Sequence record: OR352947.1 | Source: Escherichia phage AV117 | DNA length: 64,000 nt | Reading direction: 5' to 3' (one strand) | In this document: in pieces, positions 31,604 to 40,387 of the stretch | How the letters are laid out: every line of letters starts with the position of its first letter | Numbering within the stretch: the first letter of the stretch is position 1 | Position numbers and translations under genes: made by a program | The notes under the pieces: generated by a model | Database searches by the model: none | Told to the model about the DNA's origin: nothing | The model's input: the letters and a program-made list of their open reading frames with translations, nothing else

Positions 31604-32062
31604 TTATAGGATGGTAGTGAGCACCTTATATAATGATTTGCCCATTACATATTCCCATTGAGAAGGTTTAATTAAAGCGAATGCATCAAATTCAGGAATC
31701 TGTCGTCCGTCTTGGAACGTATGATAGGAATTACAAACACTGTTTCTGAATTGCTCGTGCTCTACAGGGATGGTATATAGGAACAGATGAATATTCTTAT
31801 TGTCTGAGTAACGATGTTCACCTAGGTCTTTCAGGAAGGCAGGGTCATATTGTGTAAACCCAGTTTCTTCTTCGCATTCACGAATAGCGGCTTCGATAGG
31901 AGATTCACCTGGCTCGACACGGCCTTTAGGAATATCCCACCGATGAGCTAAAGAACCTTTAGGACGAGAACCAGTTACACGCCCCATGAATAATTCTTTA
32001 TCTTCGGTAAGGAAAATAATACCGGCTGATAGTTCTTTCACTTTATTTTTCTTACTCATCAT
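31604..32062 (-). CDS. nudE: Nudix hydrolase NudE
   Basis: Nudix box GRVEPGESPIEAAIRECEEETG; start at ATG 32062 with SD AGGAATTTGAG. Confidence 0.75.
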   Translation of the reverse strand: MMSKKNKVKELSAGIIFLTEDKELFMGRVTGSRPKGSLAHRWDIPKGRVEPGESPIEAAIRECEEETGFTQYDPAFLKDLGEHRYSDNKNIHLFLYTIPVEHEQFRNSVCNSYHTFQDGRQIPEFDAFALIKPSQWEYVMGKSLYKVLTTIL

Positions 32063-32550
32063 CTCAAATTCCTGCATTCGGTAATAAAACGTTCAACTTC
32101 ATTATTCTTGGCCTTTATCTTGTCTTTACGTTCCTGTAAACTACTTTTAACAAGATTAATAATGATGGCGGCGGTACCGCCGCCAATGATGCCACCAACA
32201 ACACTTATGATACTAGATGCTAATAAGATAGCAATAATATCAACAAAACCGAAAGAACTCACCTTAGTACTGAAAAACCATATAGATGGTACAAATATAA
32301 TCCATCCTGTTATCCATTGGCACTTATTGAAAAACCTTTCAAGCTCAGCTTGAGTTGTTCGTATTACTTCATCGATAGGTTGATATCCATTAATGTATCT
32401 GTTCACGATAATACCTGCTGGCTGGTCGATTTTAAATTCTTGGCAAATATGTTTCACTAAGTAGGATGGACAGGATGTCCAATCTACTGAATAGTATGAA
32501 ATACCTTCATTGCCATCGTCTATATTAGACCAATATGTTTTGTTAATCAT
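32059..32550 (-). CDS. Hypothetical membrane protein with C-terminal FITECR motif
   Basis: 163 aa; two TM helices; C-terminus ...EVERFITECRNLR. Confidence 0.5.
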   Translation of the reverse strand: MINKTYWSNIDDGNEGISYYSVDWTSCPSYLVKHICQEFKIDQPAGIIVNRYINGYQPIDEVIRTTQAELERFFNKCQWITGWIIFVPSIWFFSTKVSSFGFVDIIAILLASSIISVVGGIIGGGTAAIIINLVKSSLQERKDKIKAKNNEVERFITECRNLR

Positions 32551-33237: not shown

Positions 33238-33543
33238 TTATTTTCCTCGACATTCTTTAATGAAATTTTCTAGATTGGTAGATTCAATAGCTTTTTTACG
33301 AGCTTCTGCGTGTTCTTCTTCGGACAATTTACGTTTATAATTGACCCAGACATTATGGTCGAAACCAGTCGTGGCATATAATAACAATGCTCCAACGAAT
33401 AGCAAAAACGGCGATAAGAATACAAAACCAGGAACACCATCCATATCGTAAGCCTTTTGTAATACTGCAACAGAAAGAGCTACGTAAAAAGGTGATGCAA
33501 GTATTGTTAAAAGACCAATTCGGTTGGTTTCTGTTAATTTCAT
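33238..33543 (-). CDS. Hypothetical membrane protein with C-terminal FIKECR motif
   Basis: 101 aa; two TM helices; ...NLENFIKECRGK; SD GAGGAGAATATT. Confidence 0.5.
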   Translation of the reverse strand: MKLTETNRIGLLTILASPFYVALSVAVLQKAYDMDGVPGFVFLSPFLLFVGALLLYATTGFDHNVWVNYKRKLSEEEHAEARKKAIESTNLENFIKECRGK

Positions 33544-33881: not shown

Positions 33882-34838
33882 TTATTTGAAAGGTTTTACC
33901 ATATGAAAGTTTTGTTTGAAACGCTTGACGTAATCGTCATGTCCTAAGCTTTGGTACATACTTACTACTTTGCTATAATTTTCCCAAGCGAACTCACGGA
34001 ACCAACCGGAGGTGATGCTTGTGCAGACTTTTTCTAATGCCATCATGAAACTGGCTTCAGGGTTAATTTCAAAGTTATTAGGAATCTGAGAACGTTCTAA
34101 CGCTAGTACACATGATTCTTCGTATACACCGGCCAATTTGACCATTTCTGGTAACGATTCGAACTTCTCGCGTGAGGTCATGACTTCAGAACCGTCTTTC
34201 ATGTAAAACGTATATGCTGGACGGTCTGTTAGTGCAATGGCTTCATGAATAGTATCATGGTCATATGTATAGATATCATCTTTAAAGAACGCACTTTTAG
34301 AAGTGTCAAGAACTGGGTGAGCATAGTTCAAGGTTTCTTTCTGGCGTTTCAGCATAATTTCAGTAAGTTCATCGTTCAGTATAACACCTTTACCACGAAG
34401 ATACTGAATATGGTTCATAGTCTTTAAAAAGAATGGATTATTTTTCTTGAAACGATGAGACATCTTAATTGCAAGGCACATCTCAGGAGTTGCCCAGTAA
34501 AACCCGTTCAAACGGTCTTTAGTCAAATTTTTCTTGGCGTATTTTAAAAGGTCATAAGAAGACGTGAAATCTTCAGGAGTGAGTTCACCGACCAATTCAC
34601 GGACATTAGTGATTGCCGGAACAATATATGCTTCAAAATGAGTTTCGCGTCCATTATGGAAGCATTTGAAAACTTGGACATCAGGGTTATCTTGATGAAC
34701 ATATACACCCATCATTTGATTTTTAAATGCATTCCAAGAACTTTGGTCTGCAATAAAGTCCCAATCACTATTTTTGATAGCGTTAGAATCAATAAGACCG
34801 TGATAGTGAAGTGCACGAGAACCAATAACTAACATCAT
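33882..34838 (-). CDS. Hypothetical protein, possible nucleotidyltransferase fold
   Basis: 318 aa; N-terminal VIGSRALHYHG...SDWDFIA resembles the hG[GS]...[DE]h[DE]h signature; weak evidence. Confidence 0.5.
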   Translation of the reverse strand: MMLVIGSRALHYHGLIDSNAIKNSDWDFIADQSSWNAFKNQMMGVYVHQDNPDVQVFKCFHNGRETHFEAYIVPAITNVRELVGELTPEDFTSSYDLLKYAKKNLTKDRLNGFYWATPEMCLAIKMSHRFKKNNPFFLKTMNHIQYLRGKGVILNDELTEIMLKRQKETLNYAHPVLDTSKSAFFKDDIYTYDHDTIHEAIALTDRPAYTFYMKDGSEVMTSREKFESLPEMVKLAGVYEESCVLALERSQIPNNFEINPEASFMMALEKVCTSITSGWFREFAWENYSKVVSMYQSLGHDDYVKRFKQNFHMVKPFK

Positions 34839-34862: not shown

Positions 34863-35102
34863 TTAAATTTCACGACATGCGATATTATATTCATCCCAGA
34901 GGTCATCGTGTGAAGCCTCTACCAATGGAACGATTGTACCATTTATATCTTCATTATAAGGGCAAATTGTACAATGTGCATCTTCGAATCGGATGCCTTT
35001 GTGTTCAGATTTTTTATAACGCATATCGAATATCTTTGCAAACTTTTCACGAGTAATGGTTTTAGCAACCACTTCGGTTCCAACACTTTCATAATAAATC
35101 AT
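34863..35102 (-). CDS. Hypothetical protein
   Basis: Start at ATG 35102 (MIYYESVG...) with SD GGAG. Confidence 0.45.
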   Translation of the reverse strand: MIYYESVGTEVVAKTITREKFAKIFDMRYKKSEHKGIRFEDAHCTICPYNEDINGTIVPLVEASHDDLWDEYNIACREI

Positions 35103-35130
35103 TGTGGACTCCATTTAATTTGATAGGACT

Positions 35131-35160
35131 ACTATAACATAGTCCTATCTTGTTGTAAAC
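35131..35160 (-). promoter_or_regulatory. Early promoter (GTTTAC-N18-TATAGT) in palindrome GATAGGACT/AGTCCTATC (near-identical copy at 41861-41890)
   Basis: Minus strand GTTTACaacaagataggactatgtTATAGTagtcctatc. Confidence 0.5.
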
Positions 35161-35164
35161 TGTT

Positions 35165-35362
35165 TTAGCAAGAATAACTAGATGATACCCAGCCTTGAAC
35201 AGTGATACTATTGTGGGATAATGAGATCGCGTCCTGGAGATTCAGACCTGCGTTATCTTCAATCCATAACGTAACTTCTTCGCGTTCTTCTGTTGCAATT
35301 TGGAACAGGTTTTCCAGAGCAGCTACTGCCGTACGTACAGCACAATCTAATTCACGAGACAT
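35165..35362 (-). CDS. Small protein, C-terminal GWVSSSYSC (paralogue family of three)
   Basis: 65 aa; shares the terminal W-[VI]-[SA]-S-S-x-x-C motif with 35372-35644 and 35654-35959. Confidence 0.5.
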   Translation of the reverse strand: MSRELDCAVRTAVAALENLFQIATEEREEVTLWIEDNAGLNLQDAISLSHNSITVQGWVSSSYSC

Positions 35363-35371
35363 ATGGTTTCC

Positions 35372-35644
35372 TTAACAAGTGTGAGAAGATGCGATCCAAC
35401 CACCAGTTTCGAGGCTCAGGTTGTAGTCGTATTGGTAAACGTCGGCCCATTCAGCATAGCCATTTTTTGTACAACGTTCAAGATCGGCTTTAAGTTGTCC
35501 GGGTGAATGATAGGTTCCACCCATACCATAAGCTGGACACAAGTCGAATGATGTGTTTTGTTTATCAGCAATTTCTTTGGCAGCCTCAATAGCTGCATAG
35601 ATTTTTGCTACAGCTTCAGCCAGTTCGGTTTGTTCTTTAGACAT
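35372..35644 (-). CDS. Small protein, C-terminal GWIASSHTC (paralogue family)
   Basis: 90 aa; internal similarity to the next paralogue (KIADQ / G.GGTY). Confidence 0.5.
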   Translation of the reverse strand: MSKEQTELAEAVAKIYAAIEAAKEIADKQNTSFDLCPAYGMGGTYHSPGQLKADLERCTKNGYAEWADVYQYDYNLSLETGGWIASSHTC

Positions 35645-35653
35645 AGTGATTCC

Positions 35654-35959
35654 TTAGCACAACGCAGAAGACGAAACCCAAGCACCTTCAGTAATAATGT
35701 AACCATTACCTTCACGCTTAACATCGCCACCATTATTTTCAATTTCATCTTTCATCCACTGGGATACGATTTCACCCTTAGGATAATAAGTACGACCACT
35801 ACCATAATCACCTACAGAAAATGATACGGCATATTGGTCTGCGATCTTTGTTGCTTCTTCTTCGATACGTTCAGCTTGATTCAGAAGTTTATAAATTGCA
35901 TCTGAAGCGGATTTGGCATCATTAAACTCTGGTACTTTAATTTCAATAATCTTACTCAT
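35654..35959 (-). CDS. Small protein, C-terminal AWVSSSALC (paralogue family)
   Basis: 101-aa ORF. Confidence 0.5.
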   Translation of the reverse strand: MSKIIEIKVPEFNDAKSASDAIYKLLNQAERIEEEATKIADQYAVSFSVGDYGSGRTYYPKGEIVSQWMKDEIENNGGDVKREGNGYIITEGAWVSSSALC

Positions 35960-36315
35960 TTTCTACATTCCTTAATAAAGTTTTCGATTGTTTCATTTTC
36001 ACGTCTAGCTAGGAGTTCATTATAACTAATCATTTGAGAAGCGTAAACCTTTTTATTTTTCTTGTTATGGTTTATAAAATCGTAGTAAAAATAGACTACA
36101 GTACAAAATGATGCGATGGATGCAAAGGCTTGTGTATACCGTAAGTCCTGCCATTGGTCTGTGAATCCGCCAGTGTTCCCTATAAATCCTAACACAACGC
36201 CGTCAATAAGAAATCCAACTAATCCAAAGGCAAATCCCATGCCAATACTCATAATAAAAATTAGAATGTTCTCACCAAGAGAAGGCCATACGGTTAAGAG
36301 TTGAGGCTTTTGCAT
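35956..36315 (-). CDS. Hypothetical membrane protein with C-terminal FIKECR motif
   Basis: 119 aa; TM helices; ...IENFIKECRK. Confidence 0.5.
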   Translation of the reverse strand: MQKPQLLTVWPSLGENILIFIMSIGMGFAFGLVGFLIDGVVLGFIGNTGGFTDQWQDLRYTQAFASIASFCTVVYFYYDFINHNKKNKKVYASQMISYNELLARRENETIENFIKECRK

Positions 36316-36689
36316 CTTATTTCCTTAACGAATTCCATAGCTTCTTCATATTCATACTTTTTAACAGCTTCATCATACTGAGCTTGGGCTTTTGCGCACT
36401 GAACTTTCCACTCACGAACTCGAGCTCTGTGATGACGGCCTTGGTGCCAATATCCTGCCCAATTAATAGGCATTAATAAAAACGGTACAATAAGTGGTGC
36501 GACGAACATTAATGAAAACGCTGCATCAGACGATATAACTTTATTGGAATCTAAAACAGCTCCTATAATCATAAAGATTAAAAACGCTAAAGCTAAAATA
36601 GGGCCAAATAGTACTTCATTTGGGATTAATTTACGTTTGTATTCGTATGCCCAGGGCTTAATTGGCATGTACAGGGTTGGCTTTGACAT
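36294..36689 (-). CDS. Hypothetical membrane protein with C-terminal FVKEIRC motif
   Basis: TM helices; ...AMEFVKEIRCKSLNS; start ambiguous (36689 or 36668). Confidence 0.45.
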   Translation of the reverse strand: MSKPTLYMPIKPWAYEYKRKLIPNEVLFGPILALAFLIFMIIGAVLDSNKVISSDAAFSLMFVAPLIVPFLLMPINWAGYWHQGRHHRARVREWKVQCAKAQAQYDEAVKKYEYEEAMEFVKEIRCKSLNS

Positions 36690-37254
36690 ATTCTCTACAT
36701 TCCATAATAAATTGCTCAAGGATTAAATTGTTAGTGAAATTAGGACTAACAACCATGGTTTCATAAAGCGCATCAATAGCACTTAAAGCATCAACTCTTT
36801 TAAGCAAAGGCTTGCCTTCATACATAGTTTCAGAATCGACGATTAACGTAAAGTAATATTTTTTATTATCGACTAGAACTTCAGTATCGATATAAAACAT
36901 GTTAGACCTTAAAAGCTTGTCTCTAAAGCCTAAGTAATCATCTGAACGTTCACTGATATAGTCCCATTCAGTGTTTAAACAACAAACAGACCACGTAGGA
37001 GCAACGAAATCAGTGAATCTAATATCATGGTCTGCAACTAGTTTAGCAATAGCTCCGATATCATGAATCATAATACCTGGGGCTAATAAAGATTTTCGGT
37101 TATTTGCATATTCAGTTGTCTCATAAGAAGACGACCAGTACCATTTACGTCCAGTTGCAACATATCGTAATGAATCAACTAAAGACGTAGGTGGATTTAC
37201 CTTATTTCGGAACTCTTCGAACATTGAGTCAATATCATTATTTTGGTTTCGCAT
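36658..37254 (-). CDS. Hypothetical protein with C-terminal FIMECR motif
   Basis: Start at ATG 37254 (MRNQNNDIDSMFEEF...) with SD AAAGGAG; ORF-track start is TTG. Confidence 0.5.
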   Translation of the reverse strand: MRNQNNDIDSMFEEFRNKVNPPTSLVDSLRYVATGRKWYWSSSYETTEYANNRKSLLAPGIMIHDIGAIAKLVADHDIRFTDFVAPTWSVCCLNTEWDYISERSDDYLGFRDKLLRSNMFYIDTEVLVDNKKYYFTLIVDSETMYEGKPLLKRVDALSAIDALYETMVVSPNFTNNLILEQFIMECREYVKANPVHAN

Positions 37255-37272
37255 GTTAACTCCTTTATTATC

Positions 37273-37295
37273 CAAAAGGAGGACCGGAGTCCTCC
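37273..37295 (-). terminator. Hairpin GGAGGAC-UCCG-GUCCUCC with a short U-tract
   Basis: 7-bp perfect stem right after the stop of 37304-37897 and before the SD of the next gene. Confidence 0.5.
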
Positions 37296-40232: not shown

Positions 40233-40309
<77 letters not shown>

Positions 40310-40312
40310 GAT

Positions 40313-40387
40313 TGGTGACCCTGGCTGGTTTCGATCCAGCTACCTATCAGTTATGAGCTGACAGCTCTCCCATTGAGCTACAGGGCC
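40313..40387 (-). tRNA. tRNA with anticodon CAU (Ile, lysidine-type, or Met), CCA encoded
   Basis: Hand-folded: acceptor GGCCCUG/CAGGGUC, D-arm GCUC/GAGC, anticodon arm GUCAG-CUCAUAA-CUGAU, T-arm GCUGG-AUCGAAA-CCAGC; 3 nt from tRNA-Arg. Confidence 0.7.

Follow-up and report, generated by a model that had tools for sequence, protein, structure and literature searches.

A conserved W-x-S-S-x-x-C tail on small phage proteins encoded beside a putative nucleotidyltransferase

Here we describe a family of small phage proteins that share the C-terminal ending W-x-S-S-x-x-C, starting from a 64,000-nucleotide stretch of the genome of Escherichia phage AV117 (sequence record OR352947.1; hereafter referred to as the window). 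Three adjacent small open reading frames (ORFs) of the window, encoding 65, 90 and 101 residues, carry this ending and precede, on the same strand, a gene for a 318-residue enzyme-like protein with DUF7277 and DUF7275 domains. Homologues of the small and the large proteins are encoded together in unrelated phage groups. From sequence comparison, they appear to form a two-component module, in which the shared tail could be a docking or acceptor site for an enzyme that is probably a nucleotidyltransferase.

Three small genes in a variable region

The region with the three ORFs is 98% identical to phage HX01 and many relatives, and belongs to a T4-like coliphage of the genus Mosigvirus. The trio lies in a variable region between the lysozyme/nudE/e.2 block and the e.3–e.6 genes, and its members are annotated in relatives as 'hypothetical proteins', the counterparts of RB69ORF136c, RB69ORF139c and the ORF or ORFs in between. 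The tail genes, their tail codons and the partner gene are arranged as follows.

35654–35959, minus strand: tail protein of 101 residues, counterpart of RB69ORF139c; phrog_899
35657–35680, minus strand: tail codons W-V-S-S-S-A-L-C of the 101-residue protein, with W, S, S and C invariant in the alignment
35372–35644, minus strand: tail protein of 90 residues; phrog_899
35375–35398, minus strand: tail codons W-I-A-S-S-H-T-C of the 90-residue protein, read from the sequence and the alignment
35165–35362, minus strand: tail protein of 65 residues, counterpart of RB69ORF136c; phrog_4882
35168–35191, minus strand: tail codons W-V-S-S-S-Y-S-C of the 65-residue protein, read from the sequence and the alignment
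33882–34838, minus strand: partner gene, 318 residues, DUF7277 and DUF7275, counterpart of RB69ORF134c; phrog_2141

A first-pass annotation had pointed out the three adjacent Trp-Ser-Ser-x-x-Cys endings and an internal similarity of the two longer proteins, and both observations were confirmed. In a six-frame scan of all 64 kb, the pattern W-[VILMA]-[SATG]-S-S-x-x-C, or a looser form of it, picks out exactly these three ORFs, all on the minus strand. The 101-residue protein comprises an N-terminal helix, a YGSGRTYY segment and the C-terminal sequence GAWVSSSALC. The 90-residue protein, which has an AYGMGGTYH motif and ends in GGWIASSHTC, falls in the most populous subfamily (AYGMGGTYYP...GWxSSSxxC). 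These two align by BLASTP at E = 1e-6 and 30% identity across ..IAD...SF....YG.G.TY.. and the tail. The 65-residue protein, ending in QGWVSSSYSC, aligns to the other two over the C-terminal part only (E about 1e-3); with its N-terminal helix retained and the central YG.GGTY segment missing, it resembles a form of its longer paralogues from which an internal stretch has been lost. The phrog_899 profile matches the 101- and 90-residue proteins at E = 3.5e-22 and 7.9e-18, respectively, and phrog_4882 matches the 65-residue protein at E = 7.7e-37.

Each of the three ORFs is preceded by an AAGGA Shine–Dalgarno sequence in which the stop codon of the preceding gene is embedded (TGY-TAA-GGA), and the start codon of the 101-residue gene overlaps the stop of the upstream e.3-like membrane-protein gene (ATGA). 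The RB69 counterpart of the 101-residue gene is annotated as 71 residues, aligns to the first ~68 residues only and lacks the tail, and a 75-residue truncated form of the 90-residue protein is annotated in phage mar005P1; these forms may be frameshifts, sequencing errors or real truncations.

A viral protein family and its conserved ending

To define the family, a profile of eleven members was searched against 1.84 billion cluster representatives with a cut-off of E ≤ 1e-3, yielding 172 representatives of clusters at 50% identity. The 150 listed of these 172 are mostly 65 to 150 residues long, with the match extending to the last residue, and the tail motif closes 140 of the 144 newly found representatives. 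In a joint alignment, three homologue groups with just 23–33% mutual identity all retain W, S, S and the terminal C without variation, establishing that the tail is conserved in homologues. The tail logo reads [ED]-G-G-W-x-[SA]-S-S-x-x-C-COOH, and the family consensus runs from an amphipathic N-terminal helix (..A..AI.EAE.IADE.G..F.F) through AYGMGGTYYP and an acidic linker to the tail. The tail proteins are acidic (median isoelectric point of 4.5), and the terminal Cys is the sole Cys in 81 of 140 proteins.

In an AlphaFold2 (AF2) model of a small protein, a long N-terminal helix is predicted, the G-G before the W forms a β-turn, W94 (numbering of the 101-residue protein) closes the last strand and S-S-x-x-C project beyond it, with a predicted local distance difference test (pLDDT) score of 55 at the terminal Cys. 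The predicted fold of the small proteins had no counterpart among solved structures. Relatives of the 101-residue protein are present in about 400 sequenced phages, and a scan of bacterial and archaeal genomes, limited to the AYGMGGTY pattern, found none; within the limits of these searches, the family is confined to viruses. Among known defence and anti-defence families (PADLOC, NCBIfam), the three small proteins had no match except one at E = 0.01, taken as noise. The entries phrog_899, phrog_4882, DUF7275 and DUF7277 are all labelled 'unknown function', and within what was searchable none of them records the tail motif or the pairing of tail proteins with DUF7277/DUF7275.

The tail is conserved as a peptide. 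In 115 distinct DNA sequences of the tail, every one of the six Ser codons, TCN as well as AGY, is used for the invariant serines, which indicates selection on the peptide rather than on DNA, RNA or an overlapping nucleotide signal; both Cys codons and all three stop codons also occur. That the shared ending is a nucleotide-level signal, for ribosome binding or recombination, or a chance resemblance, might have been suspected from the window, in which the stops of the first two genes are embedded in the Shine–Dalgarno sequence of the next. However, the codon analysis refutes the nucleotide signal, and the final gene of the array carries the tail as well, although no gene start follows there. 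Moreover, outside these ORFs the motif is absent from all six frames of the window, and the opposite strand in the 68 loci described below does not carry it either. We give this explanation practically no weight. Because the tail is strongly conserved at the protein level, the earlier suggestion that it serves as a modification site or a shared interaction motif is reasonable, and its near-obligate pairing with an enzyme gene (see below) adds weight to the suggestion.

Contrary to what had first been supposed, the tail is not strictly C-terminal. A few proteins have one residue beyond the Cys, some have shorter tails (W-x-S-S-x-C, W-x-x-S-S-C), and one subfamily of 72–84 residues contains a second, internal copy of the motif (..F[ED]DW[QLN]SSxCYGE.., given also as ..DW[QL]SSxCYGE..). 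The motif is thus a module, found at the C terminus in most proteins but not in all.

The duplication that gave rise to the trio, which the first-pass annotation took to be recent, is ancient: the window paralogues are mutually 28–32% identical, yet other T4-like genera encode a separate closest orthologue of each one, with the gene order kept, at 50–57% identity in the L009 group and 40–62% in L013 and L017. Counterparts are recognizable even in Phapecoctavirus (35% for the 101-residue type and 42% for the 90-residue type). Related T4-like phages have up to five tail-protein classes, and the three of the window phage appear to be a reduced set. The accompanying idea of an arms race, over host range or anti-defence, fits the fast-diverging bodies and the copy number of the tandem tail genes, which ranges from one to seven between phages.

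The DUF7277/DUF7275 partner and its linkage to the tail genes

In the window, the tail genes (35165–35959) precede the enzyme-like gene (33882–34838), both on the minus strand. In Phapecoctavirus phiWec181 and ABPW7, Justusliebigvirus FKP3 and Aeromonas phage 31, tandem tail genes (six or seven in FKP3) are likewise followed directly by a gene for ~300–313 residues, a homologue of the window ORF. In a search seeded with the enzyme, 58 of 68 IMG/VR loci carry one to five tail ORFs, all upstream and on the same strand, and the absence of any tail ORF downstream or antisense of the enzyme gene in the 68 loci provides an internal control for chance. As the sampled loci are not phylogenetically independent, we counted at the level of enzyme clusters (60% identity, single linkage), and found tail genes upstream in 39 of 44. 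In the opposite direction, a search seeded with small proteins of the AYGMGGTY class placed the enzyme gene 0.1–1.6 kb downstream on the same strand in 37 of 40 loci, two of the three exceptions being contig ends. Clustering of all co-directional ORFs from about 110 loci revealed that only the tail family and the DUF7275 protein are common across lineages, and the pairing holds in the unrelated Straboviridae and Stephanstirmvirinae (up to 6–7 copies) and in many uncultured contigs. Since the association was tested in both directions and no other gene family is common to the loci, the small proteins and the DUF7277/DUF7275 protein appear to be the components of a two-component phage module. Full-text searches of the literature turned up no paper that deals with the small proteins, with the DUF7277/DUF7275 protein or with the two as a pair.

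This linkage bears on the idea that the tail functions without the enzyme, which would be merely co-inherited. The tail could then bind a metal or cluster in oligomers, engage a host reader of C termini or act as a targeting signal, and it would suit such roles that the terminal Cys is usually the only Cys, that the long helix of the model could drive oligomerization, and that the two-motif subfamily would supply two thiols per chain. However, neither the pairing in lineages that share no other neighbourhood gene nor the constant order and strand would be explained, and we regard this idea as quite improbable.

The partner is far more conserved than the small proteins: its Straboviridae and Stephanstirmvirinae versions are 39–49% identical, and 22 positions are invariant in a set of 25 diverse sequences. 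The typical length in its family is ~310 residues. Homologues were found by tblastn in 734 phage records, with hosts including Pseudomonas, Acinetobacter, Vibrio, Stenotrophomonas, Xanthomonas, Gordonia, Streptomyces and Mycobacterium, and the protein also occurs in enterobacterial, Aeromonas and actinobacterial phages. The Pfam and PHROG assignments of the window proteins have E values of 1e-18 to 1e-37 for phrog_899/phrog_4882 and of 1e-79/5e-28 for the two DUFs. An exact-sequence look-up of the 318-residue window protein returned no record, and the contexts of P0043 gave no further Pfam hints.

The first 30 residues of every homologue follow the pattern M-h-h-h-h-G-S-x-A-h...(R)-x-x-x-D-h-D-h-h, succeeded by a conserved h-E-h-E-h strand. 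They contain the signature hG[GS]...D-h-[DE]-h, in which G6, S7, D25 and D27 are invariant in 25–28 diverse homologues; the spacing from G[GS] to D is 12–17 residues, slightly above the canonical x(9-13) in the window protein. A candidate third acidic residue, E69, is located in the h-E-h-E-h strand ~45 residues past D-x-D and is not invariant in the most distant sequences. By these motifs, the N-terminal part of the partner is probably a polymerase-β-type nucleotidyltransferase domain. In the C-terminal DUF7275 domain, the polar residues K125, H128, K139, H194, D195, H198, E240, E241, E248, R249 and K270 are invariant, which suggests a second catalytic or substrate-binding site. This domain is apparently helical, as predicted solely by a single-sequence model with a pLDDT of 36. 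A covalent Cys–Cys relay is disfavoured, because Cys272 of the partner is not invariant. Among GenBank records of homologues, MT385367.1 is labelled 'putative nucleotidyltransferase' and PQ885451.1 (L120:2992-3945) 'DefenseFinder protein' (category moron/host takeover); the second label suggests an automated match to some defence-system protein.

Tail proteins are missing from one distant branch of the enzyme family, seen in Gordonia, Mycobacterium, Vibrio and roseophages and in loci L073 and L074. The enzyme of this branch is flanked by a different family of ~100–120 residues, fused to it in L074, with the pattern ..GGGEGEGEYCY.V....G.FYK.EWSYYSYNG.DYDY...EV.P..KT.T.YE and no Pfam match. Members of this second small family lie at the following positions.

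L073:4112-4465, L074:273-1355 (C-terminal part), L115:3600-3893 and L116:3639-4297: flanking an enzyme homologue, or fused to it in L074
L117:4217-4609, L118:3991-4356 and L119:2360-2656: flanking an enzyme homologue

Homology between the tail family and this second family was rejected (hhalign probability of 0.2%). The pairing of the distant branch with, and once its fusion to, a different small protein suggests that having a small protein as substrate or co-worker is a general trait of this enzyme family.

The arrangement recalls the MenAT and AbiE systems (MenT1–4, AbiEii), which likewise have one or more small upstream genes and a same-strand protein of ~300 residues with a G[GS]...D-x-D N terminus, and in MenAT the partner protein controls or is linked to the activity of the enzyme (PMC7450476). 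Their toxins have a helical C-terminal lobe, as the partner apparently does in its model. The 318-residue protein could thus be imagined as a MenT/AbiEii-like nucleotidyltransferase that inhibits growth and has host RNA or tRNA as its target, restrained or timed by the small proteins as antitoxin-like regulators, the tail plugging the active site (Cys thiolate or Ser to the metal site) or inducing self-modification of the enzyme. In line with this, the small genes are tightly linked to the enzyme gene in a fixed direction, their products are acidic and one MenA antitoxin has just 68 residues (PMC7450476). By contrast, none of 25 partner homologues matches the AbiEii/DUF1814 Pfam family, which has four motifs with III and IV in the C-terminal part, or PADLOC models, even at E ≤ 5, and up to seven diverged paralogues sharing a tail would be unusual for a single toxin. 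Furthermore, intervening ORFs and a promoter mean that translational coupling is absent, and in some phages the enzyme gene is intact although the nearest 3.5 kb contain no tail gene. Within our searches, the carriers are all viral contigs, many of them large lytic-type myoviruses, in which an addiction module has no obvious role. To our knowledge, no known MenA or AbiEi antitoxin has a W-x-S-S-x-x-C tail. We consider an antitoxin-like role unlikely.

Two further features separate the tail genes from the partner gene in the window.

34863–35114, minus strand: 83-residue ORF (phrog_3723) that separates the partner gene from the tail genes and was found in only part of the T4-like relatives
35122–35159, minus strand: intergenic hairpin (35122–35149) over a sigma-70-like promoter, between the 65-residue gene and the 83-residue ORF

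The hairpin has ten pairs, the promoter reads TTTACA-17-TATAGT on the minus strand, and the coding strand has no T-run after the hairpin, although the related record OL960576 lists it as a terminator. The element resembles the early-promoter/stem-loop (PeSL) cassettes of T4-type hyperplastic regions, which have been proposed as gene-shuffling elements in T4-type phages (PMC2839356, PMC4122927). The 83-residue ORF is a lineage-specific insert and not a universal part of the module, and it and the promoter/hairpin are lineage-specific additions of the kind described for these regions (PMC2839356, PMC4122927). The ORF ends in ..LWDEYNIACREI, with a W-to-C spacing of 7 as in the tail, no Ser-Ser pair and three extra residues; the hidden Markov models of the tail family did not detect it, and its ending may be a coincidence or mark a degenerate family member.

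A second C-terminal motif, [ED]-x-F-[IV]-x-[EQ]-C-R-[KGR] followed by 0–12 residues, is shared by otherwise dissimilar ORFs of the region, all on the minus strand (32059–32550, 33238–33543, 35956–36315 and 36658–37275, and a variant at 36294–36719), several of them e.2/e.3/e.4-type membrane proteins. Their endings include ERFITECRNLR, ENFIKECRGK, ENFIKECRK and EQFIMECREYVK, with the variant EFVKEIRCKSLNS, and the motif also ends many unrelated ORFs interspersed with tail genes in other T4-like phages (L008, L009, L012, L013, L017 and L021). The e.4-like membrane-protein gene two genes upstream of the array (window ~36294–36719), which is outside the conserved module, bears an unconfirmed 'sulfurtransferase' label (L002:3498-3893, OP870146.1). 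Genes for tRNA-Arg(tct) and tRNA-Met(cat) are located at 40233–40387 on the minus strand, ~4.3 kb upstream of the array in the direction of transcription; as these are the nearest tRNA genes, a connection of the module to tRNA found no support.

Proposed recognition of the tail and its possible chemistry

A slowly evolving enzyme, many fast-evolving small clients and one invariant eight-residue tail with two hydroxyls and a thiol point to the tail as the recognized element, the pattern expected for one catalyst that serves many clients through a constant tail. We propose that the small proteins work jointly with the downstream DUF7277/DUF7275 protein: the variable body, a helix and a small sheet, would give each paralogue its individuality, and the invariant W-x-S-S-x-x-C would be the common handle. 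The putative nucleotidyltransferase would dock the tail in its active-site cleft and use one of the two invariant serines as the acceptor (Ser-O-nucleotidylylation), after which further chemistry with the terminal Cys could follow. Serine would be the likely acceptor, because polymerase-β-type transferases normally load nucleoside monophosphate (NMP) onto hydroxyls. We infer that the tail contacts the enzyme; that it is the docking or acceptor site of the enzyme is our tentative preference, to which we assign slightly less than an even chance. The modification chemistry and the biological role are speculative, with host takeover or counter-defence suggested by the likely early-gene setting. 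In a more far-reaching version, which is possible but doubtful, the module would be a phage protein-tagging system, in which a nucleotidyltransferase-like enzyme covalently modifies the tails of diversified acidic effectors, by Ser-O-nucleotidylylation or a nucleotide-activated Ser/Cys crosslink, and thereby creates a handle or cap needed for their action on the host.

A single conserved enzyme with many fast-diverging small proteins and a constant tail, together with copy numbers of one to seven and distinct orthologous classes maintained over long times, would also be expected if the small proteins were adaptors, each body binding a different host or phage target and the common tail recruiting the enzyme, so that the target rather than the small protein is modified. 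However, the bodies are very small (some of 45–65 residues) and share one simple fold, leaving little surface for both jobs, and two invariant serines and a cysteine look more like chemistry than pure docking. We judge adaptors to be distinctly unlikely.

Modification of a tail serine has parallels among characterized enzymes. GlnD–PII, GlnE–glutamine synthetase and the MNT–HEPN type VII systems have the polymerase-β fold and place NMP onto a hydroxyl side chain of a partner that is often encoded adjacently, as we propose by analogy for the tail serines; their known acceptors are Tyr residues in a loop, whereas the acceptor proposed here is Ser in a C-terminal tail, and there is no detectable homology. 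CitX and MdcG are nucleotidyltransferase-type enzymes that put a nucleotide-derived group on a Ser of an acidic carrier of ~100 residues, in citrate lyase and malonate decarboxylase. These systems have one carrier each, an internal Ser and a thiol from dephospho-CoA, whereas the module proteins themselves end in Cys; neither a CitG-like partner nor sequence similarity to the CitX/MdcG systems was found. LysW and ArgW are small, very acidic proteins with a conserved flexible C-terminal tail, EDWGE, that contains Trp and is a covalent handle for partner enzymes. They differ from the module in their Glu carboxylate chemistry, zinc ribbon, ATP-grasp partners and role in cellular metabolism, and can be likened to it by analogy only.

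The positions of the serines allow a special case of the proposed tail modification, in the manner of a ribosomally synthesized and post-translationally modified peptide (RiPP). In microcin C7 (MccA/MccB) and the aminovinylcysteine (AviCys) RiPPs, the conserved last residue is the site of enzyme action, and several precursor genes can precede the enzyme. In the module, an activated tail Ser would become dehydroalanine, and the terminal Cys would add to it in a lanthionine-type ring or be decarboxylated (AviCys), capping the C terminus. The main tail class has invariant Ser at −4 and −3 relative to the terminal Cys, and −3 is the AviCys ring spacing of epidermin and cypemycin (S/C-x-x-C-COOH); moreover, several precursor-like genes lie upstream of one enzyme and G-G often precedes the W. 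However, the Ser positions relative to Cys differ in the short-tail classes, and the G-G is a mere β-turn in the AF2 model. MccB is E1-like and the AviCys enzymes are flavoprotein decarboxylases and dehydratases; none of these is in the module loci, where homologues of a dehydratase, a cyclase or a flavin-dependent Cys decarboxylase are likewise not conserved, and Pfam detected no dehydratase, LanD or HFCD domain in the scanned window neighbours. In addition, RiPPs have a conserved leader and a variable core, whereas the module products are folded proteins of 65–150 residues with a variable 'leader' and a conserved 'core'. Such a crosslink is very improbable.

Several observations weigh against our proposal of a tail docked and modified by a nucleotidyltransferase. 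The W-to-C spacing varies (7, 5 and rarely other values), which, together with the internal motif copy, indicates that a free C-terminal carboxylate is not essential everywhere. In a few phages, the enzyme has no tail genes within 3.5 kb (L018, L032-34, L041), in T4-like phages the stretch from the tail genes to the enzyme gene can contain unrelated ORFs and a promoter/hairpin, and the synteny by itself would fit an inhibitor or an adaptor just as well. The nucleotidyltransferase assignment itself stands at the level of motifs. In its favour, the nucleotidyltransferase family DUF6036 matches one of 25 members, spanning residues 1–40 exactly, but at E = 0.005 and 17 bits, below the cut-off of 23.6 bits and failing multiple testing. 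Alignment of the N-terminal domain by hhalign to ANT(2'')-Ia (E = 0.05) and KNTase (E = 0.21) places D-x-D on their catalytic motif, in the right register, and is non-significant. Profile searches of the PDB with the full-length partner and with the N-terminal domain alone were empty, and the single-sequence AF2 model of the partner has a pLDDT of only 36.

In T4-like phages, the early genes of the variable regions are mostly orphans that offer no functional clue, and three of them are now tied to a large family and an enzyme-like partner. As read from the sequences, the module would be a nucleotidyltransferase with a dedicated small-protein partner, unrelated by sequence and fold to characterized examples, and it could prove categorically new once its chemistry is established. 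A modified tail would amount to a protein modification new to phage biology, and perhaps to a new mechanism of counter-defence or host takeover; a tagging system, if true, would be a new kind of post-translational modification module, so far found only in viruses and unrelated in sequence and fold to carrier-protein, ubiquitin-like and RiPP systems. Should the small proteins be inhibitors instead, lytic phages would have their first native toxin-like module with a nucleotidyltransferase. Either outcome would provide a function for two Pfam DUFs and two PHROGs.

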